Source: Candidatus Poribacteria bacterium (GTDB lineage: Bacteria > Poribacteria > WGA-4E > JAJDTR01). From it: a stretch of DNA of 64,000 nt. The position numbers and the translations under genes were made by a program. The first letter of the stretch is position 1; each line of letters begins with the position of its first letter. The notes beneath the pieces were generated by a model. That model had not been told where the DNA came from and searched no databases. It was given only the letters and a program-made list of their open reading frames with translations. This document shows positions 8,528 through 38,842 of this stretch, in pieces. The stretch spans positions 1,920,001 through 1,984,000 of the forward strand of contig CBDCTK010000002.1 in NCBI GenBank assembly GCA_965222225.1, given 5' to 3'.

Positions 8528-8602
8528 AACTAAAATCATCTCCCATAGCTTGTAGGGTGGGCACCGCCCACCATTTCCTGTAGTTTGTAGGGTGCGCACT
8601 GC

Positions 8603-8639
8603 GATTAAGCGAATGAATAATGAGCGCGATAGAAATCCT
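8603..8639 (+). mobile_element. GA-hairpin mini-element interrupting REP GTAGGGTGCGCACTGCGCACC
   Basis: gtagggtgcgcactgcg|attaa-gc-ga-at-gaata-at-ga-gc-gcgatag-aaatcct|accagc; empty REP at 11382-11405. Confidence 0.85.
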
Positions 8640-8664
8640 ACCAGCATCTAAAGCCCCAGAGTGG

Positions 8665-8701
8665 GATCAAGGAAGCGAATAGCGACTGCGATAGGGATCC
8701 C
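8665..8701 (+). mobile_element. GA-hairpin mini-element, single unit
   Basis: gatcaa-gg-aa-gc-gaata-gc-ga-ct-gcgatag-ggatccc within an aagcccc..acagg palindromic repeat. Confidence 0.8.
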
Positions 8702-9034
8702 ACAGGTAGTAGCAGCCAACAATGAAAAAACTTCCGGCAAATGACTAAAAATGGCTGTGCCACCTATTATTCAACCAGGCTTTAAGGAGGGCGATAGAGA
8801 TCCACCGCCCACCAGCCTTTCAAGCCGTCAGAGCGGCGACAGTCGTATAGAACACCCATCGAACGTCCTCATCAATTCGTCGATTGTCCTTCTTATCCTG
8901 CATGTCTATAAAATAACGACATACCCAAATTCCGCGCTCTAGCAGAGCGCAATGTCGATAGCATAAATATGCCCGATGCCCCGCACTCCGGAGGAGTGCA
9001 ATGTCTTAAAACCCCCAGCGTGAAATCAAATACA

Positions 9035-9126
9035 AACAAACGAGCGAATAGCGGTCAACCGACTGATTAGCGAGGGATCAAGGAAATGGATAATGACCGC
9101 GATAGCAAATCCCGATAGAAATCCCG
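9035..9126 (+). mobile_element. GA-hairpin mini-element cluster (three left parts, nested)
   Basis: ...gtcaa-cc-ga-ct-gatta-gc-ga-gg g|atcaa-gg-aa-at-ggata-at-ga-cc-gcgatag-caaatccc|gatag-aaatccc. Confidence 0.75.
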
Positions 9127-9353
9127 CGCGTTGGAGATTATCTCCAGCTTGCGACGAAACCGAGTTTTTTCCTCAAAACTCGGTTTCTGCCGCTCTTCCA
9201 TCCTTCCACTCTCGCCACTAACCACTAGCCACCGCTTTCCCCGTTTTCCCCTTCCCATTTCCTCCCCCGTGTGCTAAGATGAAAACCCATCTTCCAGTAG
9301 CCTGTACAACCCCTTCAGTTCCGTTACCCCCAATGATTAGACGGAGAGAATCA

Positions 9354-11292
9354 ATGAACTTCCGACAGAAACTCACACTCAATTTCTTGCTCTATATCGC
9401 GCTGTCCAGCGCCGCATTCGCGCAAGCCGTCGACATCCCCGACCCCAATCTCCGCGCCGCCATCGCGGCCGAGTTGAATATTGCCCGCGACGCTCCCATC
9501 ACCAAAGAACATATGCTCCGACTAGAAGACCTATCGGCCGCGAGTCAAGGTATAACCGACCTCACCGGTTTGGAATACGCAGCAGATCTGCAAAGTCTCA
9601 ACTTATGGGGAAACTCTTTTGACGACCTTACGCCGATTGCCCATCTTCCGCAGTTAAGCTATCTTAATATCGCCGGCTGCTCGATTATCGATATAACTGC
9701 CCTATCAAACTTAATCAACTTAACCGTTCTAAATGTTCGATACAATTTCATAGTTGATATCAGCCCGCTCACACACCTCACAAACCTTGTCGAGTTACGG
9801 CTAAACGACAACAAAATTACCGATATTAGCCCTTTGGATGGGTTGACTAAACTTCAATTCTTGGAAATCCAACACAACCAAATAACCGACCACAGCCCGC
9901 TAGACACACTCGCGCTTTCTCATTTTATCTACGACCAAACATGTGAAATGCCGCCTCTGCCGCTTGAGCCCCGACTGGAAAATCGAAACTACCCGTCGAT
10001 ATTTGCTCGCTGGAGCGGATTCGGTGGCACTCCTGTTACTAATCGTCCCAATCTATCGGAGGCAGAAAATCTTGCGCTTCACGACCTTCGTTTTGCTGTC
10101 CATCCGTTTGGATTAAAATTCCTCAATGTGCGCGACGGATTTAAGATGACGGGCGATGTTGACCGCGCAATAAGTCTGCGCGACGAAGTGCTTGCTGCTA
10201 ATCCGAATATCATCACTCTTGTAGATGTTCGGCTGAGAGGTGAGGGTTTGCACATACTGGGGGAGGACTGCCATATTGGATAAGAGACGAGCATGGAAAC
10301 ATCTTCCGAGAAAATACAAACGGAATCATAGCGGATTACGGCTTAATCGATTTCACAAACCCCGCCGTTCAAGATATCATCGTCCAACAAGCTGTTGCCG
10401 TATCGAAGTGCGGTTTGTATGACGGGATTGTTTTTGATTACTGGTCAGAGCAATGGCGCGTGCTTGGTGGTTGGGATGGCACGCGCCATCGCTCTTTTCG
10501 CACTTTGGAAGAAGAATTGCGTGCTCGAGAAACGATTGTACAACGCATCCGGGCGGAGACGCGTCCGGATTTTCTGATTATGGGCAATACGAATTACTTC
10601 ATAATTCCTAATACCGGATATATGTAAACGGTGGCTTTATGGAAACCGGCATTCCAGAAAACCGCACGGGCGTCGATTTGGAACGTGTCATCAATGCGAC
10701 TGAAAATGCATTGACATGGCTCGAAAACAACTTGCGAGAACCGCGAATAAACGCGCTCGAAGGTTTTAGCATTCCAGGAGAAGCCCTAGACAGCCCGAAC
10801 AATCGGCGCTGGGCGCGCGCTTTAACAACTCTAAGCTTAACTCACTCGGACGGCTACGTGCTGTACAGCGAAAGTGGGGTATTCTCACACCACTAGTATG
10901 ACTTTTGGGATGCGGATTTAGGGCGTCCAGTGGGGGAGAAGGCACAGGTGTATGAGGGGAGAGAAGGCCTTTACATCCGCGAGTTTACGAATGGTTGGGC
11001 AGTGTACAACCACAGCGGAGCCCCCCAGGTCATCACGTTGCCCGAAGAGGTGCAGGGCGTCGCCAGCGAGCGGTTGGGTGAACACGCAGCACGCGCTGCC
11101 GAATATCGACGGGGAGATGTATCTGCGAGTGAAACCGAAGAATCCCGCCGATGTCAACCGCGACGGCGTGGTAAATATCCTGGACCTGACATTGGTCGCC
11201 CAAGCCTTTGGCACCGACAAGCCCCAAGGCGACGTGAATGGGGATGGGGTCGTCAGTGTGTTCGATCTCGTGTTCGTAGCCAACGAATCTAA
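9354..11292 (+). pseudogene. Secreted LRR (internalin-like) + central domain + dockerin protein, disrupted
   Basis: Signal peptide, IPDPNLRAAI cap, LRRs and C-terminal DVNRDGVVNILDL dockerin; frameshifts near 10270, 10620 and 11070, and a TAG at 10894. Confidence 0.75.
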
Positions 11293-11293
11293 A

Positions 11294-11554
11294 ATCCTGT
11301 TTGAAAATTCATTTCGGGTAGAACTTTTGCCCTGAAACCGAGTATTTTCTTGAAAACTCCGTTTCTTTCTTGCGCAAACCCGTAGGGTGCGCACTGCGCA
11401 CCAGCTTTTGTAAGCCCAGAGTGGGATCAAGGGAGCGAATAGTGAGTGCGATAGAAATCCTGACAGGTGTATAGCAGGCGACCACAAAAGCATGAAAAAG
11501 CCGCGCCCACAGTGACCGAAATTGCTTTGCCACCTATTATTCAAACAAGCTCTA
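11294..11554. mobile_element. MITE-like element (related to 50912-51046) carrying internal REP and mini-element insertions
   Basis: Ends cctgtttgaaaa ... ttcaaacaagctct; internal segments ttttgccct and gctttgccaccta shared with the 50.9-kb copy. Confidence 0.55.
11425..11461 (+). mobile_element. GA-hairpin mini-element, single unit
   Basis: gatcaa-gg-ga-gc-gaata-gt-ga-gt-gcgatag-aaatcct|gacaggtgtatag. Confidence 0.8.
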
Positions 11555-11678
11555 AATCACGGATTAAAGGCGGACAATCTTTTAATCCAACACAGTTTTG
11601 AGATTCGGAGGCCAACGCATACGCATAATTAGGCAAATGACGCCGGTTGCATCGAAGACGATTTGTCGAATTCAATCC

Positions 11679-11751
11679 GATCAAGCGAGTGAATATCGAG
11701 TGATCAACTGAACGAATAGTGAAGGCGATAGAAGATCCTGATAGCAAATCC
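11679..11751 (+). mobile_element. GA-hairpin mini-element, nested pair
   Basis: gatcaa-gc-ga-gt-gaata-tc-ga-gt g|atcaa-ct-ga-ac-gaata-gt-ga-ag-gcgatag-aagatcct|gatag-caaatcc. Confidence 0.8.
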
Positions 11752-11764
11752 GCGATTCAGACAA

Positions 11765-11856
11765 TCGCCCAAGCCTTCGGCACCGACAAGCCCGAAGGCG
11801 ACGTGAATGGTGACGGCGTCGTCAACGTCTTCGACCTCGTCCTCATAGCAAACTAA
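11765..11856 (+). pseudogene. Orphan duplicate of the dockerin-coding 3' end of the upstream LRR gene
   Basis: Encodes AQAFGTDKPEGDVNGDGVVNVFDLVLIAN*, similar to about 11196-11290. Confidence 0.75.
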
Positions 11857-11919
11857 TTTTGAATCCCACCCTTCCTCCCTTCCCGTCTCCTCGTTTTCCC
11901 GTCTTCCCTCCTTCCACCC

Positions 11920-12960
11920 TCACTCCTCCCAAAAAATCTCGACCCCGAGCCTACTCGCCATCTCCGCCAAACTGCGCAGATGCACCACATGAAGCGGAAT
12001 CCCGCTCTCAATCCACTTCTCCCGCTTCCGCCACTCAATCTCCCCCGGCAGATAGACCCGATCAACCCCCTCCACCGTTTTCGACGCGCGCACCGTCCGA
12101 ATCCCGCGATCTACCTCCGCCGCATACGCATCGAAATCCGTAAAACTTGAGACGTTAATCGCGATAAAGAAATGCTTCGAAGGCTCATCGGCGGCGTGGC
12201 ACGACATTAAACCGCCCACCAGCGGCCCCGCCAGGATACCCATAACCAGCGCCAACCCGTACCCCTTCGGCCCCGCCGCCGGCATCATCAAATGCCCTTC
12301 GCTCGGATCCGTGACACTCTCCCCGTCCCCGTCCAAGAACCACTCCTTCGGCACCGGCTGTCCGTACATATTCATCGTGAGAATCTTGCCCCACGCCGAA
12401 ACCCCGCACGCCATGTCCAAAACGATGGGCAACTCCTCTCCTGCCGGTAGCGCATAGCTCAGTGGGTTGTTCCCCACGACACGTTCCGCGCCTCCCGGCG
12501 CCACAACCGACGCTCCCCCGGTATTCGTCGTTGCGAACCCAATCATCCTCTCCTCGACAGCCATCATCGTAAAACACGCCGCCGCCCCGAAATGCCCCGC
12601 GTTCCGCACCCCCGCTGCCGCGATACCCGTCGACTTCGCCTTGTCGATAGCCGCCCTCATGGCGACCACACTCGCCACATGACCCAGCCCGTTATCGCCG
12701 TCAAAGAGGACATAGCCGCCGCCCTCCCGAAGCACCCGAATCTCCGGCGCGGGATTCATATCGCCCGCAAGGATATTCTGTATGTAAGAAGGCGCAAGCC
12801 GCGTCCCGTGCGAATACACCCCCCGCAAATCCGTTTCAACCTGGAGCTCCGCCATCAATTCCGCGTGTTCCCGGCTGACCCCCGCCTTCCGATAGAGCGT
12901 ACACGCAAATTCACGAAGCTCCTCCGCCTGCACAACAATTTCCTGATTAATCTGAGACAT
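11920..12960 (-). CDS. Ldh_2 / AllD-family (malate/L-lactate/ureidoglycolate-type) dehydrogenase
   Basis: DLRGVYSHG, DGDNGLG, HFGAA, GNNPLS, VLDMA, GPKGYGL and YLPGEIE motifs. Confidence 0.85.
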   Translation of the reverse strand: MSQINQEIVVQAEELREFACTLYRKAGVSREHAELMAELQVETDLRGVYSHGTRLAPSYIQNILAGDMNPAPEIRVLREGGGYVLFDGDNGLGHVASVVAMRAAIDKAKSTGIAAAGVRNAGHFGAAACFTMMAVEERMIGFATTNTGGASVVAPGGAERVVGNNPLSYALPAGEELPIVLDMACGVSAWGKILTMNMYGQPVPKEWFLDGDGESVTDPSEGHLMMPAAGPKGYGLALVMGILAGPLVGGLMSCHAADEPSKHFFIAINVSSFTDFDAYAAEVDRGIRTVRASKTVEGVDRVYLPGEIEWRKREKWIESGIPLHVVHLRSLAEMASRLGVEIFWEE

Positions 12961-12984
12961 AACAACCCCCTTTGACACTACCCC

Positions 12985-13122
12985 GTAGTAGGCATACTCC
13001 GTATGCCGTAACCCTCGTACAGATTACGGCACGACGAAAGAGATAAGACTCCCATTAAGTTCCACGTGCAACCCAACCCGCCCCGTACGATAGCAAACAC
13101 CTTCAACCAGCTCGTAGGAGGA
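12985..13122 (+). repeat. 138-bp intergenic repeat, second copy at 14343-14480
   Basis: Near-identical from gtagtaggcatactccgtatgccg to ctcgtaggagg; each copy is followed by a different mini-element. Confidence 0.9.
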
Positions 13123-13217
13123 GATCAACCGAGCGGATAGATCAAGCGACTGAATAAGGAGTGCGATAGAAAATCCCGTGCGATCAAGCGACTGAACAAG
13201 GAGCGCGATAGAAATCC
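13123..13217 (+). mobile_element. GA-hairpin mini-element cluster (three units)
   Basis: gatcaa-cc-ga-gc-ggata g|atcaa-gc-ga-ct-gaata-ag-ga-gt-gcgatag-aaaatccc gtgc gatcaa-gc-ga-ct-gaaca-ag-ga-gc-gcgatag-aaatcc. Confidence 0.8.
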
Positions 13218-13373
13218 ACCACCCTTCCCGTTTTCTCGTCTTCCACCCTTCCATCCTTCCCCATTAGCCATTGGTCACTCGCCACTAATCACTGCTTTCT
13301 CCCTTCCCGTCTTCTCGTTTTCCCGTTTTCTGCTTTCCCCCTTCCGCCGCGCCGCCACCGCTGACATTGCCAA

Positions 13374-14191
13374 CTATTTGCGCGGTTCAACCACCTGAGC
13401 ATCCTCAAGGCGAGGGAACAAACGTTCGCCATGCGGATCGACGAGATTGACTCTGGATAGGTGCAGTGTGGATGTCTTGACAGCCCGCACCTCAAACGTC
13501 AGGACGGCTAGCGTACCGTCACTCTCACCATCACAATCGAGTTTGGACGCCTCAAGCCACACACCGTTTCCTCTTATTTTCGGCTGCTTGAATAACGCGC
13601 CTTCTGTAACGTAGTCACCAGCGGCAGCTTTAACATATCGGAGCGCTGCGTGGTCAAACATAACGGTTACGCGACAGCCTGCCACACTTTCTCTTGCGGC
13701 GATGTTGACGGCAACCGTACGCCGCTCGCCCGGCATAGGCGATGTCACGACAGAAGCACCGTGCCGTCCGAATTCCCACTCGCGAGCGTCCTGCCATCCG
13801 GGCTGAACGCTACGCTTGTAACTATACGGGCGTGCCCGGAGAGCGATTGCAGTTGTTTCCCCGTTTTGGCATCCCATAGTCGCACCGCGCCGTCCGAACT
13901 TCCACTGGCGAGCATTCTGCCGTCCGAACTAAACGCGACGCTCCTCACCCCGGTCGGGTGCACGGCCAGAAGGTCCATCTCTTGATGACTCGACGTATCG
14001 TAGAGCCAGATACCGATAGAACTGGCGACGGCGAGACGTGTGCCATCTTGGGAATACTTAATCTCGAATATTCTACCCTTACCTATGCGTATCCTAGCGC
14101 CTGCCAGCAACCGCCGCGACGAAGACTCTTGTGCGCCGACATTGATCGAAAGCAAAGCCAATATTATGAGCGATGTGACCGATAATTTCAC
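13374..14191 (-). pseudogene. Short WD40 + cohesin protein, frameshifted
   Basis: Signal peptide, RIGKGRI..RLAVASSIGIWLYD, two WD40 repeats, frameshift near 13750, then a cohesin-like domain (GTLAVLTFEV). Confidence 0.65.
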
Positions 14192-14480
14192 CTGATGCAC
14201 CGCCTTAATTAGAATGATGTAATGGAAAAGCCCGTAGGTTGGGTTGAACGCAAATCCATGACAACGCATACGCGGGAGACCGAGGCTGTCCAGATTCCAT
14301 TACGCACAAAAAGACCGAAATCCAAGTGAAACCCAACACCCGGTAGTAGGCATACTCCGTATGCCGTAACCCTCGTACAGATTACGGCATGACGAAAGAG
14401 ATAGGACTCCCATTAAGTTCCACGCGCAACCCAACCCGCCCCGCACGATAGCAAACACCTTCAACCAGCTCGTAGGAGGG

Positions 14481-14615
14481 GATCAAGCGAATGGATAATG
14501 AGTGCGATAGTAAATCCCGATAGCAATCTTTCTTGCCCCGACTGAGTCCGAACCGGTGCGATACAGATCCCTTAATCCGATCAAGTGAGTGATTAGCGAA
14601 TGCGATAGAGATCCC
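14481..14615 (+). mobile_element. Two GA-hairpin mini-elements (14481-14528, 14579-14615)
   Basis: gatcaa-gc-ga-at-ggata-at-ga-gt-gcgatag-taaatccc; gatcaa-gt-ga-gt-gatta-gc-ga-at-gcgatag-agatccc. Confidence 0.8.
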
Positions 14616-14701
14616 ATTCAAACAATCACCCATCCTTCCACTCTCACCACTAACCACTGGTCACTAGCCACTGCTTCTCTTCCCTCCCTTCCATTCTTCC
14701 A

Positions 14702-17572: not shown

Positions 17573-17636
17573 CTGAGGCACCACCTTTCCTAATTTGAAT
17601 CATGTGAAATACGCGAGCCCGTAGTTTGTAGGTTGG

Positions 17637-17673
17637 GATCAAGCGACTGAACAAGGAGTGCGATAGAGATCCT
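17637..17673 (+). mobile_element. GA-hairpin mini-element, single unit
   Basis: gtaggttgg-gatcaa-gc-ga-ct-gaaca-ag-ga-gt-gcgatag-agatcct. Confidence 0.85.
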
Positions 17674-17912
17674 CACTCGCCCGACAATGGTAGGCGGGGC
17701 ATCTTGCCCCGCCGGATTGTGGCTAGCCCATAGGTTGGGAACAAGCGACTTTCTTCCGCGTAATCTGCGATTCAGACAATCACCCATCTTTCCCCCTTCC
17801 CATCCTCTCGTTTTCCCTTTTTCCGGTCTTCCGCCCTTCCCTCCTTCCAATCTTCCCCTCCTCCCGATTTCTCCCGTTCCCGTTTCTGCTTTACCGCCCT
17901 TCCAACCTTCCA

Positions 17913-20372: not shown

Positions 20373-20434
20373 CTAAAGCACCACCTTTCCTGATTAGAGA
20401 AATTTCATGTTTCTATAGTCAACACTGTAGGAGC

Positions 20435-24437: not shown

Positions 24438-24672
24438 GACCAACTGACTGATTAAGGAGGGCGATAGAAAGTCCCGATAGAAATCCCATGAAGCACTGCG
24501 AAAGCCAACTCCTCTGTAGGAGCGACCTCCTGGTCGCGACAAGACCGAGCAATCAAACGGGATCAAACGAGTGGATAGCGAGCGATCAACTGAGTGAATA
24601 ACGAAGGATCAAAGTAGCGGATAGCGACTGCGATAGCTAATCCCATACTAGATCCCGTGCGATAGAAATCCT
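24438..24672 (+). mobile_element. GA-hairpin mini-element clusters (24438-24487, 24551-24672) flanking an intact REP GTAGGAGCGACCTCCTGGTCGCGAC
   Basis: Up to four stacked left parts followed by three right ends. Confidence 0.75.
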
Positions 24673-26119: not shown

Positions 26120-26239
26120 GATTCCCGTCCTCCGTTAGTTATTCCAACCCTTCGAGTGACTGATTTTGCTCGACTTTGTGCATTTGTAGCATTTGTAGGG
26201 TGCGCAGTGCGCACCAGCCTTTGATGAAAGCGCAGCAGC

Positions 26240-26834: not shown

Positions 26835-26864
26835 CTATCGCATTCGCCATTCGCTCATTTGATC
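26835..26864 (-). mobile_element. GA-hairpin mini-element
   Basis: Minus strand gtaggg-gatcaa-at-ga-gc-gaatg-gc-ga-at-gcgatag. Confidence 0.75.
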
Positions 26865-27253
26865 CCCTACGATTGAGGCAGAGTTTGCGCTCAATGAAAC
26901 GCGGCATACGCCGGCAGCCGTAGGCGTTGGGTCTCCCAACCCGTTGGGTGCCTCCCTCGATTTACGCGCCCGCCTAACATAAATGTCAACACAACCTAGC
27001 CCCAATGGTCATGAAAGCAACGTCAATGTGCGATTCGACTTTGCGGTTGGTGGCAACCACCTTTTCATACCAAAATTTCATACCTACCTCTCAACGACCA
27101 CACCGTCAAAACCGCAAAAAATCCAGTCATAGCAAAGGTTTCCACCCTCTTTCCATCTCCCTCCAAAACCCCCATTTGGTATGAAAAGTATGAAATTCCC
27201 CAAGCGTACTAAACGACACCCTTCACGTCCCACGCAGTCCTTTTGTAGGGTGG

Positions 27254-27360
27254 GATCAAAGGAATGAATAATGACTGATCAAACGAGTGGATAACGATCA
27301 AGTGACCGGATAGGGAACGCGATAGCAAATCCCGTGCGATAGAAATCCCATAGAGATCCC
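27254..27360 (+). mobile_element. Triple nested GA-hairpin mini-element
   Basis: Three left parts then three right ends in reverse order; the XX/X'X' pairs match when un-nested. Confidence 0.85.
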
Positions 27361-27426
27361 CTTCCAATCTTCATCGCCACCCTCCCGATTTTCTCGTCCT
27401 CTCCTCTTCCATCCTTCCTCTCCCAT

Positions 27427-28383
27427 TTATCGCGATGACGTGCGATTGTAATTCCCAACTTTCCACGACCCACCCGTCGATTCGTAACGAACCCCCCGCG
27501 GCGGCAGAAACCGCCGAAGATGCCGACACCCGTAGGCGAACCCCTCCAATCCCGGCATACCCCGGTCCTCATTCTCGACGCACAGCACATAGTCGTAGCC
27601 CGACTCGACCAGCGCACCGACCACCGTCCCCCAATTCAAATCCCCGCGCCCCGGCACGCGATACTGCCACCACCAGTTGCCGATAATGCCTTGCCGGTAC
27701 AGCATCCGCGGACTAACCTCGCAGTCCTTCACATCCGCATAATACCACTTGCCCGCATACTCGCGAATCACATCTTCAGCCGGCATAATCATCATCCACA
27801 CCCAGTGCGACGGATCGCAAGACAAGCCCAAGTGATCCGAGGGCACCGCGTCCAAAATCTTCTCCCACATCTCCGGATTGCAACCGATATTCCCCATGCG
27901 CACCGCCACATCAAGGGCAATCTTGATATCCTTATCCTCCGCGGCGTTGACCACCGGCGCGAACATCTCCGCGAAACGCCCCACCAACTCGTCCGAGCGG
28001 TCGCTTACGTTTCCCGGCGGGTACGAGTACGTGCCGTAGAACCGCCCGTTCACCACCGGCGACCCGCTCCCCGTAACCACCACCGGGCACTCCAGCACCG
28101 CCGCCGACTCGATTGCCCGTATCAAACGGCTCTGCTCCGCTGTGCTCACCTCCGCTCTGTCATCCAGCAAGTTGCAGTGCGAGGTGACACAAGCCAAATA
28201 CAGGTCATGCCGGTTCAACGTCTCCAACACCTCATCCGGCCCCTCGCTGAGAATGCGGTTCGACTCCAGCACGCCCCTGTCAGACAGTCGCACGCAATCA
28301 AAGTCGTGCTCACTTGCCCAGGCAGCGCATTTCTCCAAGCTCCATGTGCCGTCGCCGGCACTCGTCTGAAAACTTATATCCAT
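27427..28383 (-). CDS. Sugar-phosphate isomerase/epimerase (xylose isomerase-like TIM barrel)
   Basis: LGLSCDPSH, ADVKD, PGRGDLNW and GYDYVLCVENED motifs; SD GGAGGG before MDISF. Confidence 0.8.
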   Translation of the reverse strand: MDISFQTSAGDGTWSLEKCAAWASEHDFDCVRLSDRGVLESNRILSEGPDEVLETLNRHDLYLACVTSHCNLLDDRAEVSTAEQSRLIRAIESAAVLECPVVVTGSGSPVVNGRFYGTYSYPPGNVSDRSDELVGRFAEMFAPVVNAAEDKDIKIALDVAVRMGNIGCNPEMWEKILDAVPSDHLGLSCDPSHWVWMMIMPAEDVIREYAGKWYYADVKDCEVSPRMLYRQGIIGNWWWQYRVPGRGDLNWGTVVGALVESGYDYVLCVENEDRGMPGLEGFAYGCRHLRRFLPPRGVRYESTGGSWKVGNYNRTSSR

Positions 28384-28451
28384 TTCCCCTCCACTGAGAT
28401 ACGAACAAGGCTCTCCCCGTAGGGGTTGGGTCTCCCAACCCGTTGCGTACC

Positions 28452-28607
28452 AATCAACTGAGATCGAGGGAGTGAATAACGACCGCGATAGCGCTCCCAT
28501 CGTGACCGACAAGCCAACTACTGTAGGAGCGACCTCCCGGTCGCGACCAATAAAGCGAGCGAATAGCGATCAAGCGACTGGTCACTGAGCGATCAAAGAA
28601 CAGATAG
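28452..28607 (+). mobile_element. GA-hairpin mini-element clusters (28452-28500, 28549-28607) among REPs
   Basis: gatcga-gg-ga-gt-gaata-ac-ga-cc-gcgatag-cgctccc and others. Confidence 0.7.
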
Positions 28608-28753
28608 TTCGTAGGGTGGGCACTGCCCACCATTTGACCTACGCCACGATTATCAAATCGCCGCTTTCCTCTTTTACCGCCCACCATTTCAATGCGGCGC
28701 AATCCACATTCGCCAAATCAAAGCGCTAGATAGAGCTGTAGGGTGCGCACCGC

Positions 28754-28826
28754 GATCAAGCGAATGAATAATGAGTGATCAAAGCAATGAATAATGACTG
28801 CGATAGAAAATCCTGATAGAAATCCT
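28754..28826 (+). mobile_element. Nested GA-hairpin pair interrupting REP GTAGGGTGCGCACCGCG(C)ACC
   Basis: ccgcg|atcaa-gc-ga-at-gaata-at-ga-gt g|atcaa-ag-ca-at-gaata-at-ga-ct-gcgatag-aaaatcct|gatag-aaatcct|accagcc. Confidence 0.85.
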
Positions 28827-28837
28827 ACCAGCCTTTT

Positions 28838-31180: not shown

Positions 31181-31328
31181 GTGCGTTGTCCTTAGTTCGA
31201 ATGTCAGGAGCTAAAGTTCCAGTCTACAGGAGCGATGGAAAATAGAGTTCGGGTCTCGGTTCCTGGCGATGATGGGCAATAAGAGAAGAACTCGGCGATT
31301 CGATAACGGATTTCTCTCGCAGGTCTTG

Positions 31329-31358
31329 CTATCGCCCTCGCTATTCACTCGGTTGATC
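31329..31358 (-). mobile_element. GA-hairpin mini-element at the breakpoint of a gene fragment
   Basis: Minus strand gatcaa-cc-ga-gt-gaata-gc-ga-gg-gcgatag. Confidence 0.8.
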
Positions 31359-31470
31359 CCCATCGATCCCGGTACACGTCGACAGCCTCTCCGAGTTCGG
31401 GCAGCCGCATCGTCGTGGTGAGGTCCGGCAGTGCGGATTTGAAGTCGTTTTCGGTAATCTTCATTTCCAT
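31359..31470 (-). pseudogene. Duplicate of the first about 35 codons of the penicillin acylase gene
   Basis: MKITENDFKSALPDLTTTMRLPELGEAVDVYRDRWG, then the mini-element. Confidence 0.85.
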
Positions 31471-31511
31471 TGTCCGTATATCATGCATTCTAAAGTACGT
31501 TTGTAGGGTGG

Positions 31512-31774
31512 GATCAAAGGAACGGATAGTGACTGCGATAGAGTTCCCCTGCCCACCATTTCTTTTAGGATACGATTGTAGATTGTCAAATCCCCGATTT
31601 TCCCTCTTACTGGAATTAGACAAACGAATAATGAATGCTATAGACCTCTTAGAGAGTTCCCACTAGCACCGTAGGCGGGGCATCTTGCCCCGCCCACAGC
31701 TAACCTGTAGGAGCGAGTTCCACTCGCGACTCTGTAGGATTAAACGAGCGAATAGCGAGTGCGATGGAGATCCC
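31512..31774 (+). mobile_element. GA-hairpin mini-elements (31512-31548 in REP GTAGGGTGGGCACTGCCCACC; degenerate 31614-31648; 31738-31774)
   Basis: gatcaa-ag-ga-ac-ggata-gt-ga-ct-gcgatag-agttccc; gattaa-ac-ga-gc-gaata-gc-ga-gt-gcgatgg-agatccc. Confidence 0.75.
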
Positions 31775-32024
31775 GCTGCCCCACATTGGAAAGACTTCAT
31801 TACCCTAAGTTGCCATCTTTGTAGCACGATCTGTTAGATTGTGCATGTGATACGCAAACTGACACATTGCGCGACTACATCTACACAATTAATCGTCTAT
31901 GTTCAATAAAAATTGATGGGGATTGTCTATATTCTTCTAAGTAACAACTTGGGTCAATTAACAAAATTCGCCATCCGTGTAGCACAATCTGTTAGATTGT
32001 GCTTGCCATGCGCAAACTGACGGC

Positions 32025-32876
32025 TCAGTTTCCAGTGACGGGAGGAGTGAATCCCCACAGGAGCACCGTCCCGTCCAGGCTCCCACTGGCAAGCGCGCTG
32101 CCATTTGAGCTGAACGCTACGCTTTCGACTGCAGCCGTATGCCCGGTGAGTGTGCGCAGATGTTCCCCCGATGTCGCATCCCACAGTCGCGCCGTCTTAT
32201 CCGAACTCGCGCTGGCGAGTGCGCTGCCATCCGGGCTAAACGCTACGCTTGAGACCCCCGACCTATGACCGGTGAGCCTACGCTGGTGTCGCCCCGTTTC
32301 CGCATCCCACAACCGCACCGTCTTGTCCGAACTTCCACTGGCAAGCGCCCTGCCATCCGGGCTGAACGCTACGCTATTGACTCGAGACTTATGCCCGGTG
32401 AGTGTGCGCAGATGTTCCCCCGATGTCGCATCCCACAACCGCACCGTCTTGTCCCAACTTCCACTGACAAGTGTGCTGCCATCTGGACTGAGCGCTACGC
32501 TAATGACCCGATTCGTATGCCCGGTGAGTGTGCGCTGATGTTCCCCTGTCTCCGCATCCCACAGCCGCACCGTCTTGTCCGAACTTCCACTGGCAAGCGC
32601 CCTGCCATCCGGGCTGAACGCTACGCATTCGACTTGAGCCGTATGACCGGTGAGCAGGGCGACCCCTTGAAGCGTCGCCGTATCGTAGAGCCAAATACCG
32701 ATAGAACCGGCGACGGCAAGCCGAGTGCCGTCCGAGGAATAGGTTATGTCATTTATCGTGCCTTTACCCAGTCGCGATTTAGCGCCTTCGGGTAATCCCC
32801 ATTGCGTGTAGTCTTGGGCGGGGGTGTTGCATCCTAGCACAGCCAGAAGAAGAAGCAATGTAACGGTGAATTTCAT
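32025..32876 (-). CDS. Short WD40-repeat protein, possible lipoprotein
   Basis: Signal peptide ending VLGC; five near-identical WD40 repeats. Confidence 0.8.
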   Translation of the reverse strand: MKFTVTLLLLLAVLGCNTPAQDYTQWGLPEGAKSRLGKGTINDITYSSDGTRLAVAGSIGIWLYDTATLQGVALLTGHTAQVECVAFSPDGRALASGSSDKTVRLWDAETGEHQRTLTGHTNRVISVALSPDGSTLVSGSWDKTVRLWDATSGEHLRTLTGHKSRVNSVAFSPDGRALASGSSDKTVRLWDAETGRHQRRLTGHRSGVSSVAFSPDGSALASASSDKTARLWDATSGEHLRTLTGHTAAVESVAFSSNGSALASGSLDGTVLLWGFTPPVTGN

Positions 32877-33131
32877 TTGAGGTACCGCCTTTCTGAGTTA
32901 GTTGCCATCCGTTTGATTTGATGATTGTAAAAGGAGAAGAAATCCGCGCGGGCTGTGTCTCCCTAAGCGATTGCAGATCTCATGGATGATAAGCGATTCA
33001 TCTTACTTTGACGAATAAAATCGTGTGCGATGAAGCGTTGGGTTTCACTTCAATCTCGGCAGTATTATGCGAACTGAAAGGCCCCAAGCCCTCCTGGGTG
33101 TGATTTCTCATGGATTTCGTTTCAACCCGAC

Positions 33132-33494
33132 CTACGCACTGAAAGTTCCGTTTCCGGTGGCGGGAGGGGTGAATCCCCACAGCAGCACCGTCCCGTCATG
33201 ACTCCCACTGACATGTGTGCTGGCATCCGGGCTGAACGCCACACATTCGACTGGCCCCGTGTGGCCGGTGAGCAGGGCAATCTCTTGAAACGTCGCCGTA
33301 TCATAGATCCAAATACCGATAGAACCGGCGACGGCAAGCCGAGTGCCGTCCGGGGAATACGTGATGTCATTTATAGTGCCTTTGCCCAAGCGCGCCTTAG
33401 CGCCTTCCGGTAACCCCAATTTCGTGTAGTCTTGGGCGGGGCTACTGCATAGGAACAACCGCAATAGAGCAAGTGAGACCTCTGTAGAGTTCAT
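33132..33494 (-). pseudogene. Internally deleted WD40 paralog (single repeat left)
   Basis: Same N- and C-terminal segments as 32025-32876 with the intervening repeats missing. Confidence 0.6.
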
Positions 33495-33720
33495 CGGAAG
33501 TACGGCCTTTCTGAGTTAGTTGCTATCCGATTGATTTAATAAATCGCGGATTCCACAGGGGGAATTGGAATTCTTTCAAAACAGCGTCTTCTTACGGAGA
33601 CAACGCAGGACGAGTTAAGCAATCGTGGGCGGCAAAAAAAAATGTGTGAGTCATTCCTTGAATCACGCCCCATTGATTGGATGATTGAAAATCGTTCAAC
33701 CCAACGTGCGCACCAACAAC

Positions 33721-35537
33721 TCAGCGCCCTGTGGCGAAAGAGGTGAAATCCCACAGCAGCACTGTTCCGTCCGAACTCCCACTGGCAAGCGTCTTTCCAT
33801 CCGGGCTGAACGCTAAGCTATTTACTGGATCTGTATGCCCGAGGAGTGTGCGCTGATGTTCTCCCGTTTTAGCATCCCACAGTTGCACTGTCTTGTCCAA
33901 ACTTCCAATGACAAGCGTTCTGCCGTCTGGACTGAAGACTGCGCTCAAGACCGCACCAGTATTTACTGCCAGCGTGTGAAGATGATTCCCCGTAACGGCA
34001 TCCCACAGTTGTACGGTCTCATCGCTACTTCCACTTGCAAGCCTTTTTGCGTCTGGACTGAACGCTACGCTATAGATTGCCCTCGTATGCCCGGTGAGTA
34101 TGTGCAGATGTTCCCCAGTGACAGCATCCCAAACTCGTACCGTAATGTCCTCGCGCCGGTCCCAGGACCCGCTGGCACTAGCAAGCATCTTTCATCCGGG
34201 CTGAACGCTAAGCTATTTACTGAATCTGTATGCCCGAGGAGTGTCCAGAGATGTGTCCCCGTTTTTGCGTCCCACAGTCGAACTGTCGTGTCATCACTCC
34301 CACTAGCAATCGTCTTTCTATCTGAACTGAACGCTATGTCATTAACTGAACCCAAATGCCCATGGAGCGTCCGCACACGTTCTCCCGTGTTGGCATTCCA
34401 CAGTCGCACGGTGTCATCATAACACCCACTGCTGGCAAGCCACTTTCCATCCGGGCTGAACGCTACGCTACGAACTGGACTGAACACTGGGCTCCTAATC
34501 GAATTCGTATTATCGTCGAGTGCGCGCACTCGCTCTCCCGTATTGGTATTCCACAGTCGCACTGTGCCATCATCACTCCCGCTGGCAAGCGTCTTTCCAT
34601 CTGGGCTGAATGCCACGCTATTGACAGAACGCGTCTGCTCGGAGAGCGTCCGTGGGGGTCCTGCTGGTCTGACATCCCACAGTTGTATCAAATTAGGCGG
34701 ACTCGCACTAGCTTCCCACAGTCCCAACCTTCCGCGGCTGCCCCCACTGGCGAGCCACTTGCCATCCGGGCTGAACGCGACGCTATAGACCACATTGTTA
34801 TGTCTAGTAAGTGTCTCCAGATGTGTCCCAGCGACGGTATCCCACAGTCGGACTGACTTGTCCCTACTGCTACTGGCAAGCCTTTTTCCGTCCGCGCTGA
34901 ACGCTATGCTATTGACGTAATCCGAATGCGCGACAAGCATGCGGTGATACCTTCCCGTTTCCGCTTCCCACAGTCGTATCGTATTGTCCTGACCCGCACT
35001 AGCAAGTTTGCTGCTGTCCGGGCTGAATGCTACGCATTCGACCGCAAATGTGCCGCAGTTTAGCGTTCGCAGACATTCCCCAGTTTTGGCATCCCATTGT
35101 CGAACTGTGCCATCATCACTCCCACTAGCAAGCATCTTGCCATCCGAACTGAACGCTACATCCCAAACGATACCCGTATGCCCGGAAAGTGATCGTTCAT
35201 GGTCCCCAATTCTGGTGTCCCATAGTCGAACTGTTCCATCAGCACGCCCACTGGCGAGTGTCCCATCCGTGTTAAATGTCACGCATAGGTCCGCGCCAGA
35301 CATCTTCCCGGTTAGCAGGGCTACCGCTTGATGCGAATTTGTATCATAGAGCCAAATTCCGATAGAACTAGCGACAGCGATCCGTGTGCCGTCCGGTGAA
35401 TAAGTGATGTCACTTATCGTGCCTTTACCCAAGCGCGCCTTGACGCCTTCGGGCAACCCCCACTGCATATAATCTTGGGAGGAGGTACTGCATAGAAACA
35501 GCGGCAAGAGTGTAAGTGAGGTCTCTTTAGTGTTCAT
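33721..35537 (-). pseudogene. WD40-repeat protein with a frameshift near 34190
   Basis: ORFs 34065-35537 and 33721-34188 join as AFSPD(G)KMLASASG. Confidence 0.7.
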
Positions 35538-35584
35538 CTGAAGTACGACCTTTCTGAGGAAGTTGCCGTCCGATTGATATGATA

Positions 35585-36628
35585 TAGGAGTTACGCAGTT
35601 GGCTGAAGCGTATAAAGAGGTTGTGCCAAATAAGCCCGTACCGCATCTCTGACAATAGAGAGTTTTGCATCAAACCAACTGATACCGGTATGATAGCAAT
35701 AGTGCTCAATTCTCAGAAAGGCTCTCAGCGCTAAACCGATATGATTTCTTTGAGTGCGAGCAGAGCGCACTTGTGCGCGTTCAATGCCAACAAATTGCTT
35801 AATCCCGCGATGATATTCTTCTATTGTCCAAGACCATTCGGCATATTTGAGACGCGTCAATTCGTCCATCTGTAAATCATTCGTTGCCCAATATTCAATG
35901 TCACCTTCTGGAGTGTCAACCTTAAATACTCGAATCAATCCATAGCCTTTGAGATGGACAATTGTACCTGTTGATTCACTCGGAAGCGTACTCACCGGAC
36001 GGTTACCGGAATAATCTTTACTGACAAGTCGGTTGGCAGCTAGACGAGTAAGCCACTTCCAACCATGACCTCGCACCGCTTTTAGATTCTTTAGACTGGC
36101 ATACCAACTATCAAAACACACACATTCAGGAGCAAAACCGCGTGTTTTCGCTTCTTCAAGCATGGCGCGGAAATGCTCATTCTTCGTCAAGCCGTCTTTG
36201 GCTTTATCATAGATTCGATAATCACACGGAATATGTCTATCGCCATCCGTCCAGAGCAAAGTGACCAAGTTAATCCCATTCACAACTCGGTGGTGTTTCC
36301 CTGACCAGTGTTTTGTCACGAGTTCAATCTTTTGTGAATAAGGTTTATCCAGAGTCGAGTCATCTATAACTAAAATTCCGGATTCTAATTTCACCTGATT
36401 TCTCGATTCTTGCCACAGTTTGCCAGTATCGGGTTCCTCTCGATGCAAGAGCCGTGTTATCGAATCGTGAGCCGGAGGATTATCAGCTTGGGGTTGAACT
36501 TTTTCCGATTCAAGACAACTGTAACTTTTCTGAGCGGCTACCAAGAAATCAATATAGTCAGTGTCAGTATATTTAGGGGGATTCATACTCAAATTATAAC
36601 CTATTTTCACTCAACTGCGTAACTCCTA
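35585..36628 (-). mobile_element. IS701-family insertion sequence, copy 1 (1044 bp)
   Basis: 17-bp TIR TAGGAGTTACGCAGTTG; flanking direct repeat ATGATA; same transposase as copy 2. Confidence 0.9.
35591..36610 (-). CDS. IS701-family DDE transposase
   Basis: LVIDDSTLDK, FDSWYAS and WTIEEYHRGIKQ motifs. Confidence 0.85.
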   Translation of the reverse strand: MKIGYNLSMNPPKYTDTDYIDFLVAAQKSYSCLESEKVQPQADNPPAHDSITRLLHREEPDTGKLWQESRNQVKLESGILVIDDSTLDKPYSQKIELVTKHWSGKHHRVVNGINLVTLLWTDGDRHIPCDYRIYDKAKDGLTKNEHFRAMLEEAKTRGFAPECVCFDSWYASLKNLKAVRGHGWKWLTRLAANRLVSKDYSGNRPVSTLPSESTGTIVHLKGYGLIRVFKVDTPEGDIEYWATNDLQMDELTRLKYAEWSWTIEEYHRGIKQFVGIERAQVRSARTQRNHIGLALRAFLRIEHYCYHTGISWFDAKLSIVRDAVRAYLAQPLYTLQPTA

Positions 36629-36678
36629 ATGATAATCGCAGATCCTATAGGCGTAATGGAATACTTTAAAAGGCTGGG

Positions 36679-36714
36679 AGGATTTCTATCGCACTTGTTA
36701 TTCACTCGCTTGAT
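36679..36714 (-). mobile_element. GA-hairpin mini-element
   Basis: Minus strand gatcaa-gc-ga-gt-gaata-ac-aa-gt-gcgatag-aaatcct. Confidence 0.8.
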
Positions 36715-36788
36715 CGCAATAAGAGGGAAATCGGCGATTCGCCGATCGCCGATCGCAGCCTACAGAATGGGGGAACGTGAAGATTATA

Positions 36789-38114
36789 CTAACCTAGGCG
36801 GACGCAGAGAAACGGAATCAACATCTCGTCCGGCGTCAAACCGCCGTGCTTGCCGCCGGTATAATACGGCTTCTCTTTGACAGACGAGTAGAAGGCGTAG
36901 TTGTCACGCATGATGGCGACGAGGTTGCCCATTCGATCGGGCACCTCCGGATGCACGTCCCCGTATCCCCACAGCCCGGAACTCAGCGCCTTCGACGAGG
37001 GAATGGTGACAAGCTGATCAGAGAGCTGATCCTGCAGGTAGGAGCGCAGCGCCTCGAGCTTGCCCTGCTTGGCGTATAGGTACGCCGCCCGAAAATCCCC
37101 CGTTGGCGGCAATAGGAGATTGTCCTTGATTTTCGCGTGTCGATCGACCCGCACCAGTTTGTTGTCGGGCACCGTCACTTGGCCGTGGTCGGCAGTCAAA
37201 ATGAGAAGTGTGGTTCCCGAGATCTGGGAGTCGACGCAATTGATGAATTCGCGCTCGAGGGAATACGAAAGATTCCGCACCTCCGCCGCAAACGCCTCGC
37301 TGTTCGCGCCGTAGGCATGAGAGATTGAGTCGATCGCATCCCAATAGACCAGAATACACGTCCGTTCATCGGGCTTCTCTTTTACCAATCTTCGTAGCGT
37401 CACGAACATGTCCGAAGAGTTCACAAATCCGTGCACCTTCTTTGAACCGTTGTAAAACATCTTGGACAGAGGGCTTTCCTTATAGATGCTCTTGATGAGC
37501 ACATACGAATCAATACCCGCGTTTGTCAGGCGTTGGTTTAGTGTCTCGGCTCGGAGAAACTGTTTAGGCTCAAGTCCCATCCGCAGCAGACGCTCGTGCT
37601 CGCCGTCATAAATCGGCGTAAACCCGATCATATCGGCGACGGTCGCGTACTCCCTGAGGAAAAGGCGATAGCCGAGCATGCCGTGTTCTTGGGGAGTTAA
37701 ACCGGTGCTAAGGCTTGTCAGCGCCGCCGCCGTTGTGGATGGGAAAATTGAGGTGAGGGGGGCGAATCGACCGCGGCTGATGAGTTCGTTGAGAATCAGG
37801 TTGGGTTCGGATCTTAACACCGCCCGAAGTTGATTGTATCCCAAGGCGTCGACGATGAACAAAATCACCTTCCGCACCCCTTCCGTTTGCCCTTCGGTCA
37901 AGTCGTCGGGCAAGGGGGCATGATGCGGGATGCGGATGTTGAAAAGCTTCAGCAGCGTGGCGGGAATGTTGACTAACGAAAGGTCGGAATAGGCGGGGTA
38001 GATGAATTCGCCGGGGCGTAGCCCTTGATTTATCTGTTTGATACTTCTGCTGCGGATCCGAGCTTCAATCCGATCGGCTAATGTTTGAGGCACTGCGGAA
38101 TCCCGATTTGCCAT
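36789..38114 (-). CDS. Alkaline phosphatase superfamily / type I phosphodiesterase-nucleotide pyrophosphatase
   Basis: IVDALG, FPSTT, DSISH, TADHG and GKHGG motifs. Confidence 0.85.
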   Translation of the reverse strand: MANRDSAVPQTLADRIEARIRSRSIKQINQGLRPGEFIYPAYSDLSLVNIPATLLKLFNIRIPHHAPLPDDLTEGQTEGVRKVILFIVDALGYNQLRAVLRSEPNLILNELISRGRFAPLTSIFPSTTAAALTSLSTGLTPQEHGMLGYRLFLREYATVADMIGFTPIYDGEHERLLRMGLEPKQFLRAETLNQRLTNAGIDSYVLIKSIYKESPLSKMFYNGSKKVHGFVNSSDMFVTLRRLVKEKPDERTCILVYWDAIDSISHAYGANSEAFAAEVRNLSYSLEREFINCVDSQISGTTLLILTADHGQVTVPDNKLVRVDRHAKIKDNLLLPPTGDFRAAYLYAKQGKLEALRSYLQDQLSDQLVTIPSSKALSSGLWGYGDVHPEVPDRMGNLVAIMRDNYAFYSSVKEKPYYTGGKHGGLTPDEMLIPFLCVRLG

Positions 38115-38195
38115 ATAACGGGTATTCTCCTATCCAGACACATTCTTATCGGCTACAACTCCGATCCCTGCTAGTCTGTGCAGGGCTGTTGAGGA

Positions 38196-38693
38196 TCAAG
38201 AACAGGTGCCGATGATCAGAACGGCGGCTGGTAATGACGTGGCTTGCGCTTTTTGAAATGCACCGCTGATGGAATGGATATCGTCATCGGTTTCGATGAT
38301 GTTGTAGGGGAATCCCCACGCTTTGAGCGTAGGTTCCAGAAATGTCGCCGCGGAATCGGCGTGGAGTCTGCTCCCAGGCTGAAGTGTCTGATACCCGCGA
38401 TAACCGATAAGCGTTACCAACGGGATTTCCATATTGACGGCGGTGCCTCGGATGGCATCTCCGGATTCCAAGAAACCCGTGTTCTGGATGAGCACCACCG
38501 GCTGCTTGCCGCCGACATACAACCCGGACGCAATGGCGAACGCCTCGCCCTCGCGGGTGACGCTGATAACATCGATTTCCGGCTCGCCGCGAAGTTTTTC
38601 GTAGAGCTTCGCCGACCCGTTATCCGGAAGTCCAATCACATGGGTAACGTCCCATTTCTTTAATTCGTCAATAATCTTCTGCGCTGATGGCAA
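38196..38693 (-). CDS. TPP-binding N-terminal domain protein (sulfopyruvate/phosphonopyruvate decarboxylase alpha, ComD-like)
   Basis: GLPD, TREGEA, IQNTG and IGYRG motifs. Confidence 0.75.
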   Translation of the reverse strand: MPSAQKIIDELKKWDVTHVIGLPDNGSAKLYEKLRGEPEIDVISVTREGEAFAIASGLYVGGKQPVVLIQNTGFLESGDAIRGTAVNMEIPLVTLIGYRGYQTLQPGSRLHADSAATFLEPTLKAWGFPYNIIETDDDIHSISGAFQKAQATSLPAAVLIIGTCS

Positions 38694-38752
38694 ATCGTAT
38701 CCCTCCTCATCTCGTCAGGAATGGCAATGCGTGTTTGTAGGGTGCGCATTGC

Positions 38753-38789
38753 GATTAAGCGAGTGGATAACGAGTGCGATAGCGATCCT
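38753..38789 (+). mobile_element. GA-hairpin mini-element interrupting REP GTAGGGTGCGCATTGCG(C)ACC
   Basis: ttgcg|attaa-gc-ga-gt-ggata-ac-ga-gt-gcgatag-cgatcct|ataccagcc. Confidence 0.85.
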
Positions 38790-38842
38790 ATACCAGCCTT
38801 TGAATGTGCCACTCATCACTAGCCACTCGCCACTGTCGTTCC

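Follow-up and report, generated by a model that had tools for sequence, protein, structure and literature searches.

Repetitive extragenic palindromic (REP) sequences form hairpins whose 5′ foot carries a conserved GT[AG]G tetranucleotide (Quentin et al. 2018, PMC6006769), and in the cited sections of the main REP/REPIN–RAYT accounts the role of the RAYT enzymes in their spread is only proposed (PMC6006769; Bertels and Rainey 2011, PMC3116915). REPs can lie inside small palindromes (Di Nocera et al. 2013, PMC3733652) and, according to a title cited in PMC3116915, IS1397-type insertion sequences insert into REP palindromic units; the guests in these cases are GTAG/CGTC-tagged REP dimers or full insertion sequences, and the sections cited describe neither an after-G rule nor a loss of nucleotides. 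Here we describe a mobile, non-autonomous hairpin mini-element of 34–38 nucleotides (nt) from a 64-kb stretch of a Candidatus Poribacteria genome (hereafter the window; G000:C2:1920001-1984000, in a genome of 5.7 Mb and two contigs). The element inserts after a G in REPs, in its own copies and in other hairpin repeats, and leaves no consistent target duplication. We regard it as mobile because sites that are filled in one Poribacteria genome are empty in another, and because the same REP positions hold many stem variants. In this descriptive part of the account, which covers the element, its insertion rule and its targets, we have high confidence. Some of the public sequencing runs that contain the window carry the label sponge metagenome.

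The element resembles the REP/REPIN–RAYT systems in being a short hairpin repeat with hundreds of mostly intergenic copies and no target duplication, in a genome that has Y1 genes and GTAG-headed REPs, and its strand asymmetry matches that of the GTAG REPs of this genome. REPs are recognized as a folded single strand, and the element may be likened to them in this respect too. It differs from REPs in its stems, which are 2 + 2 base pairs around G·A mismatches and not a long GC stem, in using REPs instead of the neighbourhood of genes as insertion sites and in its hundreds of compensatory stem variants in one genome. With the palindrome-borne REPs and the IS1397-type elements it shares a preference for palindromic repeats as landing sites. 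Integron attC sites carry R″ and R′ core sites (GTTRRRY) and are recombined by IntI at G^TT; judged by its sequence, the element was rejected as an attC site, having no GTT core and ends (GATCAA and GCGATAG) that are not inverse complements. The repeats SDR1–8 of heterocystous cyanobacteria, reportedly described by Elhai et al. in 2008, are said to be mutually nested, hairpin-type repeats of 21–27 nt. From what is reported of them, the SDRs share with the element a length of tens of nucleotides, a hairpin-type, non-coding sequence, nesting in repeats, placement after GCG and the lack of a known transposase; going by description rather than by aligned sequences, the element differs in its 34–38 nt, in its phylum, in targeting REPs rather than HIP1 and in the loss of target bases. 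HIP1 (GCGATCGC) is not abundant in the genome (120 copies). SDR5 sits precisely between the third and fourth base of HIP1, GCG^ATCGC, according to the section cited (Elhai 2015, PMC4390886). As far as the cited sections describe them, IS200/IS605 elements (IS608, ISDra2; PMC6006769) also have no inverted-repeat ends, no target duplication and a target base 5′ of the element on the structured strand; they are read as hairpins in single-stranded DNA and are linked to a replication strand, two respects in which the element may resemble them. A limited search of the full-text literature, which is not proof of absence, found no paper on such repeats in Poribacteria.

Alignment of all 2157 GCGATAG sites in the genome gave the consensus GATCAA-NN-GA-NN-GrATA-NN-GA-NN-GCGATAG-ArATCC. 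The unit can be written (G)ATCAA-NN-GA-NN-GrATA-N′N′-GA-N′N′-GCGATAG-ArATCCy, in which the four variable dinucleotides are pairwise complementary and form two 2-bp stems with tandem G·A mismatches between them, closed by the GrATA loop. There are no terminal inverted repeats beyond GATC. The tail 3′ of GCGATAG comprises 5–9 nt (mostly 7–8) and ends in a pyrimidine (ArATC plus zero to two C/T); common tails are AGATCCC, AAATCCC and AGTTCCC, or each of these preceded by a further base. With a loose pattern the genome yields 919 copies and with a strict one 691–699, depending on the count; these numbers are copies and not independent events, as many filled copies represent one composite that propagated. 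Searched as an exact match, with the reversed pattern as control, the element has 496 matches in the genome and the control none, which excludes chance. An Rfam scan of the window returned zero families at the gathering score.

The pairing was assessed in 126 distinct copies (504 cells) from the genome and from G005, the nearest relative compared, which is 90–97% identical to it in genes. Standard pairs occupy 94.8% of the cells as against 60.0% in shuffles, a level reached in 0 of 500 shuffles, and changes on both sides from the commonest pair occur in 237 cells, with 49.3 expected. When the partner was slid by 1–3 columns as a control, 23–58% of cells were paired. G·T wobbles account for 66 cells and other non-pairs for 26; because these wobbles would be A·C mismatches on the opposite strand, the fold is assigned to the G/A-rich strand. 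The outer and inner stems are variously combined, with 197 combinations among 624 copies. One tail variant, TCTTGTAG, gives rise to tandem arrays with a period of 38 nt, whose units differ in their stems. Two such arrays lie outside the window (G000:C2:1578372-1578560 and 1538157-1538440; tail TCTTGTAG(G)); neighbouring units have differing stems, each internally complementary, and the stacking could result from the tail, which restores a GTAGG^ target.

GTAG-headed REPs stand empty or interrupted in the window (Table 1): REP-A (GTAGGGTGCGCAsTGCGCACCAGC), REP-B (GTAGGGTGGGCACyGCCCACC) and REP-C/D (GTAGGAGCGAyCTCCnGGTCGCGAC). The REP head has 8 matches in the 64-kb window, as against 0.18 expected, which excludes chance. 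Every site named in a preliminary description of the window was located by reading its coordinates. That description held that REP-A stands empty at 11382 and 26195 and is interrupted at the same base at 8587, 28738 and 38737, and that REP-B, empty at 8552 and 28611, is interrupted near 31512. These readings were confirmed, with a tail that is 2 nt longer at 38737 and an interruption of REP-B after its tenth base. For REP-C/D, the two interruptions at 51222 and 56350 and the empty copy at 28523 stand as described, the interruptions having their junction G at these positions on the minus strand; the other empty copy starts at 24516, not 24517. The three REP-A interruptions had been taken for three different hairpin variants. 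The stem type does differ at 38737, whereas 8587 and 28738 share one type (GC-AT/AT-GC), the three interruptions being two stem types and one nested composite. Most of the intergenic sequence has turned over between the window and G005; the 135-bp spacer that holds the REP at 38737 corresponds to 1.3 kb of other repeats there.

Table 1. Empty and interrupted hairpin repeats in the window, with the parts of each interrupted copy (window coordinates).
Feature	Coordinates	Strand	Parts	Target bases at the joint
REP-B, empty, GTAGGGTGGGCACCGCCCACC	8552-8572	+		
REP-A, filled at site 2 (after the 17th base)	8587-8645	+	Head GTAGGGTGCGCACTGCG 8587-8603; 36-nt element ATTAAGCG..GATAGAAATCCT 8604-8639; ACCAGC resumes 8640-8645	One C missing relative to the empty REP
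REP-Y-type hairpin repeat AAGCCCCAGAGTGGG..ACAGGTAGTAG with element	8651-8712	+	Core 8666-8694; tail GGATCCC 8695-8701	
REP-A, empty	11382-11405	+		
REP-C, empty, GTAGGAGCGACCTCCTGGTCGCGAC	24516-24540	+		
REP-A, empty, loop G in place of C	26195-26218	+		
REP-C, empty	28523-28547	+		
REP-B, empty	28611-28631	+		
REP-A, filled at site 2 by a nested composite	28738-28833	+	Head 28738-28754; host element 28755-28777 and 28815-28826; inner element of 37 nt, 28778-28814, after host G24; ACCAGCC resumes at 28827	C25 of the host lost at the inner joint
REP-B, filled at site 1 (after the 10th base)	31503-31557	+	Head GTAGGGTGGG 31503-31512; element 31513-31548, tail AGTTCCC; CTGCCCACC resumes 31549-31557	CA missing relative to the empty REP
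REP-A, filled at site 2, stem type GC-GT/AC-GT	38737-38798	+	Head 38737-38753; 38-nt element 38754-38791, tail CGATCCTAT; ACCAGCC resumes 38792-38798	
REP-C/D, filled; host element carries a second element after its G13	51136-51228	-	GTAGGAG 51228-51222; tail AGATCT; TCTCCAGGTCGCGAC resumes 51150-51136	CGA of the empty REP missing
REP-C/D, filled	56301-56358	-	GTAGGAGCG 56358-56350; element 56349-56313; CCAGGTCGCGAC resumes 56312-56301	Ambiguous (the target has its own ATC)
Strict element copies (32)	2398-58265		19 of 20 plus between 2398 and 38782; 11 of 12 minus between 47095 and 58265	

Junctions were defined genome-wide from filled and empty paralogues, by taking 10-mer anchors on either side of each copy and seeking genomic sites at which the anchors lie close together. 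This yielded 215 filled sites and 209 distinct empty/insert pairs, 206 of which involve a single element (a simpler version of the anchoring gave 194 sites in 145 target contexts). The base 5′ of the insert is G in 142 pairs and A in 51; the latter include 40 inserts that begin with TCAA, for which the A of a GA in the target also serves as the first base of ATCAA. An exact left boundary (ATCAA) is seen in 105 of the 206 pairs, besides these 40 with TCAA after GA. At the other side, the target has lost 0, 1, 2, 3 and 4 nt in 37, 33, 40, 24 and 15 pairs, respectively, and 5–10 nt in 26, and the strings most often missing are CA, C and CG (17 each), followed by G (10), A (5) and CAT (5). Apparent overlaps of 1–4 nt, which may be duplication or microhomology, occur in 12 of the 206 pairs; larger overlaps occur in 19, mostly tandem-array cases. 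The net gain in length is 33–36 nt in 144 of 149 events, inserts of 36 nt mostly replacing 2 nt, those of 37 nt replacing 1 nt and those of 34–35 nt none. Inserts are mostly oriented like the GTAG strand or like the element that hosts them.

The insertion rule is therefore that the element joins the target after a G, without consistent duplication, and that 0–3 nt 3′ of this G are missing, most often 1–2. The preliminary description had proposed the replacement of 1–2 nt after a G, often at G^C, and no target-site duplication. The absence of duplication is borne out here, as it is in the comparison with G005 below. The G and the most frequent losses hold as well, although the loss spans 0 to 3 nt or more. 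As to G^C, the next base is indeed C in the REPs and at G24 of the element; only the G is constant, and A or G follows it at G13, G20 and G26.

Within REPs the position of the joint is fixed. The genome has 198 copies of REP-A, with 82 empty, 53 filled after base 10 and 26 filled after base 17, and 124 copies of REP-B, with 78 empty and 21 filled after base 10. At each REP-A site one stem type dominates (25 of 53 and 8 of 26) beside about ten or more others, some of the parses into stem types being disturbed by nesting. The finding of many stem types at the same nucleotide indicates that the position was hit by many variants, besides the spread of composites. Counted over all copies, 194 of 699 have a GTAG within 17 nt upstream, compared with 6.0% of 92,286 sampled intergenic G positions, and the offsets peak at 10 (80 copies), 9 (34) and 17 (24). 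The idea that the element occupies the same position within REP palindromes, first read from a few window sites, thus holds across the genome, at fixed offsets of 9–10 and 17 nt from GTAG and with many stem variants at each, and neither random positions nor a lack of REP enrichment was found. In a wider count, the orientation is that of the GTAG strand in 198 copies, and 37 copies have only a downstream CTAC.

Other hairpin repeats are also hit. REP-Y (CCCCAGnGGGG-CG-ACAGG), a second hairpin repeat, hosts 35 of the 699 copies. In a CRISPR-like array the element interrupts 4 of 12 repeats, in the 3′ arm of the repeat hairpin; the repeat starts with GTAG. This array lies outside the window (G000:C2:2705500-2707950) and comprises 12 repeat starts (GTAGCAACCATTGCC..), 8 intact 37-nt repeats and spacers of around 36 nt. 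A core of around 100 nt with a degenerate repeat, placed between inverted elements, occurs four times and only in this array. Unique, non-repeat sites are hit as well, as the comparison with G005 shows. The preferred targets are thus GTAG-headed REPs, the loop and 3′ half of the element's own hairpin together with its G24, REP-Y and GTAG-headed CRISPR repeats. Three other determinants of the target were considered and rejected: GATC as a duplicated target, as most targets have no GATC; complementarity between the tail and the 5′ flank, which is true for GGG targets only and fails for GCG targets; and guidance by the stem sequence, as joint spread of host and guest in composites accounts for the apparent association of stem type with site.

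Self-insertion follows the same rule. Among the 699 copies, 181 are nested in the same orientation within another copy, and the base before ATCAA is a host G in all of them. The host positions are G24 (73 copies), G13 (33), G20 (28), n18 (17), n19 (13), n11 (9), G26 (5), G9 (2) and n22 (1), a preference for the 3′ arm, the loop and the G that directly follows the hairpin over the mirror positions in the 5′ arm (28 at G20 versus 2 at G9); insertions after the first G of the host also occur. Strict matching resolved 107 of the 181 cases, in which 0, 1, 2 and 3 nt were lost in 9, 38, 39 and 13 cases and 4–6 nt in 8. Self-insertions had been described as usually hitting the G^C of GCGATAG and losing the C. 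G24 is indeed the commonest nested site, and loss of C alone is one of two common outcomes there (17 of 52 resolved cases, as against 28 with loss of CG and 7 with no loss). A further 28 copies abut an inverted copy at CTATC(G), one of which was confirmed against G005 as CTATCG-CC-CTCGC, with CC replaced. The G13 class mostly consists of a single host-plus-guest pair. After such an insertion, the host and its guest can be propagated jointly, as a composite.

The preliminary description had asked for orthologous loci to be compared in a relative. Unique flanks of the elements were mapped both ways between the genome and a 1.34-Mb sample of the 6.63 Mb of G005, which located 42 sites, 13 of them occupied in both genomes and the other 29 rows filled in one and empty in the other. 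In around 14 distinct clean rows the empty allele has a G at the joint in every case, and a duplication in none. Nothing was lost once (GTAGGGGCGGGG^TTTCCCC, with a 35-nt insert), A was lost in three rows (ambiguous between 0 and 1 nt), and CG, GA, TCA, CAA and CAT were lost once each; GTT was lost in four rows, which may trace to a single event within a larger repeat. With flanks that are 92–99% identical, rows 1, 6 and 15 are probably true orthologues, whereas the others may be paralogues. Deletion between direct GATCAA repeats takes place too, as row 4 shows when set against row 1, and one double-nested REP was found at several G005 loci (rows 8–10). An insertion of 36 nt (12 codons) on the minus strand of contig C2, near G000:C2:2405084 (rows 25–27), lies in a sequence that may be coding and of which the sampled part of G005 has three occurrences.

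The exact pattern has 281–768 matches per genome in all 9 genomes of the genus and 113–128 in each of 4 genomes of a genus of another family (4 of 4); 4 other genomes have 1–13 matches, and none was found in 100 genomes of the sister family. The reversed control has no match in any of the nine genomes of the genus or elsewhere. A scan of 185,579 species genomes found at least 101 stretches with the pattern, and all of the 80 matches listed are from records of Candidatus Poribacteria metagenome-assembled genomes. Short-read contigs from four public runs break off at the repeat clusters, with no contig spanning an element.

The element shows no bias relative to gene direction (212 versus 204 copies in tandem gene contexts), and 53 of 697 copies lie inside crude gene calls. 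On a GC-skew map of the genome that is patchy, 470 of 697 copies, and 301 of 425 single-orientation clusters, have their G/A-rich (top) strand on the strand that is locally richer in C, and this preference (67–71%) is present in ++ and −− gene contexts alike. Empty copies of REP-A (47:21) and REP-B (57:21) have the same strand bias, so the bias belongs to the hairpin repeats of this genome at large. The flip in orientation within the window (Table 1) coincides with a switch in GC skew and gene strand at 43–47 kb (43000-47100), where two genes for DDE transposases are located (44001-44798 and 46023-47042); their position is more in keeping with an inversion breakpoint than with an origin. Nearby, at 48381-48995, lies a gene for a GIY-YIG protein.

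The genome has five matches to Y1 (PF01797), and TnpB (PF07282) was not found in it. One Y1 protein, of 157 amino acids and encoded on the minus strand at L001:1384-1857, carries DHIH, WQ and YIKNQEAHH, the signature of subclass 1.2, which the cited part of Quentin et al. 2018 (PMC6006769) tabulates without REPs. Its gene is flanked by REP-Y hairpins in six of six loci (L023–L028, from G000, G001, G002, G005, G009 and G070; repeat AAGCCCCAGnGGGGCGAcAGGTGTATAG), which form a tandem array in G070, and this Y1 with its own hairpin repeat may be an undescribed REPtron. The element sits in some of the flanking REP-Y copies, differently in each genome. Three further genes are class-2 RAYT-like, and two of them are broken in this genome; at L005:1388-1750, the C-terminal half of a class-2 RAYT (WQ..YIKNNP) ends at nested elements and the HUH half is gone. 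A dedicated transposase was sought by co-occurrence, and none of the four Y1 types tried tracks the element. The idea that elements form the ends of a larger autonomous unit was rejected, as the copies adjacent to Y1 genes are insertions into REP-Y or lie within a truncated RAYT, and so was an autonomous unit built on the core of around 100 nt, given its confinement to the CRISPR-like array. No enzyme can be named from co-occurrence.

As a whole, these observations are best explained by a single-stranded, structure-directed insertion carried out by a trans-acting enzyme, either HUH/Y1 or another structure-specific one, and we infer this with a probability of roughly one half; that the step is specifically HUH-type strand transfer of single-stranded DNA is possible, at somewhat less than even odds. 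In such a reaction the G/A-rich strand would fold as single-stranded DNA, probably at the replication fork, and the fold would be recognized in trans, by an HUH (Y1) enzyme akin to those of RAYT/IS200 or by some other structure-specific nuclease. The folded element would then be joined to a nick 3′ of a G in another extruded hairpin, and the less exact 3′ joint would displace or trim 0–3 nt. The preliminary description saw a fit to single-stranded strand transfer or break-repair at hairpins. The targets are indeed hairpin repeats, hit at fixed positions, and the strand-specific covariation and the skew-linked asymmetry favour a single-stranded intermediate; no enzyme is linked to the element.

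Several observations weigh against this account. As free DNA, the element has a minimum free energy of only −1 to −2.1 kcal/mol by nearest-neighbour folding, which is no better than that of shuffles, and the predicted folds are not the covarying hairpin; from this marginal stability, the invariant unpaired bases and the covariation, we suggest that the hairpin is probably held and read by a protein, which would stabilize the fold. No cognate RAYT flanked by copies of the element accompanies it, unlike in the REP/RAYT systems, and the four bases 5′ of its stem are TCAA, GTAG occurring only in an invaded REP or in the TCTTGTAG tail variant. Of 151 genomes of the phylum, 93 have the subclass-1.2 Y1, among them 63 of 100 from the family that lacks the element; at E ≤ 1e-20, two of the four genomes of the second genus, all of which bear the element, have no match to this protein. 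The class-2 RAYT-like genes, three in number and present in 3, 83 and 20 of the 151 genomes, show no relation to the element. Compared with IS200/IS605, the element has one hairpin rather than two, encodes no TnpA and has one conserved target base, and the loss of 0–3 nt with only the G constant is unlike the exact integration of that family 3′ of a specific tetra- or pentanucleotide. The structured strand lies on the C-rich strand, which is opposite to the lagging-strand-template rule of IS608 if the G-rich strand is the leading one. Part of the class with losses of 3–4 nt is an artefact of paralogue mismatches near the joint, and the counts refer to copies rather than events, with composites propagating. 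The data do not separate enzymatic strand transfer from break-repair or copy-choice at stalled hairpins.

A serious rival, unlikely as we judge it, is copy-choice (template switching) at stalled hairpins, in which a nascent strand that ends in G would prime on another copy at G^ATCAA and return a few bases off register, with no dedicated enzyme. It would account for hairpin targets, a left joint that shares one base (G, sometimes GA or GATC), an imprecise right joint with 0–3 nt lost, a strand asymmetry tied to skew, the lack of a co-occurring transposase and the deletions that do occur between direct GATCAA repeats. The left boundary, exact or TCAA after GA in the numbers given above, is sharper than is usual for copy-choice, and microhomology at the right joint is confined to 12 of the 206 pairs; the conserved unpaired bases and covarying stems point to a protein that reads the fold, and unique, non-repeat sites are hit too (rows 13–16 and 25–27). 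Another reading keeps the enzyme and changes its chemistry: an undescribed HUH-type reaction would swap sequence through two cuts, with a nick after the G, the element pasted in and the next 0–3 bases replaced. A Y1 enzyme (the subclass-1.2 protein or a RAYT) would read the sheared G·A pairs and the unpaired GATCAA and GCGATAG, and any complementary stem would work, which would allow diversification into hundreds of stem variants. We consider this version doubtful; if it is true, the element also erodes REP populations and CRISPR arrays.

The variety of stems at each site bears on a less probable explanation, under which a few ancient insertions into REPs were followed by copying of the composites (by a RAYT) or conversion of empty paralogues by homologous recombination, with the stems diversifying later. 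Composites clearly propagate: 25 of the 53 copies at REP-A site 1 have one stem type, the nested G13 class is mostly one host–guest pair and the same double-nested REP recurs at several G005 loci. Around ten or more stem types per hot spot, with paired differences, would nevertheless need many compensatory double mutations; the same after-G joint is found in different REP families, REP-Y, CRISPR repeats and unique DNA; and filled and empty alleles differ at sites with 92–99% identical unique flanks (rows 1, 6 and 15). Composite spread and conversion account for part of the copy numbers and not for the variety per site. An RNA-mediated route, in which the element would be transcribed, folded as RNA with G·U and tandem G·A pairs and reverse-transcribed into nicks, its ends untemplated or trimmed, fits the G·T(U) wobbles on one strand only, the variable length of the 3′ end and the small target deletions. 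It is very unlikely, as the lack of orientation bias relative to neighbouring genes means that the structured strand is not regularly transcribed and no 5′-truncated series was seen. An ordinary miniature inverted-repeat transposable element (MITE) moved by a DDE transposase of the genome, two genes for which lie in the window, is barely credible: the element has no terminal inverted repeats beyond GATC and no regular target duplication, and its structure is strand-specific. This agrees with the preliminary description, which argued from the lack of duplication against DDE transposition. MITEs as small as 34–38 nt are not known.

In the literature consulted, as far as the cited parts extend, no insertion reaction for REP-like or smaller repeats has been demonstrated. 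Filled/empty pairs that follow a simple, testable rule number in the hundreds in this genome and its eight sequenced congeners, which also provide defined oligonucleotide substrates and a small set of candidate enzymes. Four Watson–Crick pairs and two G·A pairs are kept by compensatory change in around 200 variants within one genome, and such conservation in so small a hairpin calls for a protein that reads the fold. An element that lands in REPs, in itself and in CRISPR repeats is a parasite of other repeats, and it bears on the decay of REPs and CRISPR arrays in symbiont genomes.

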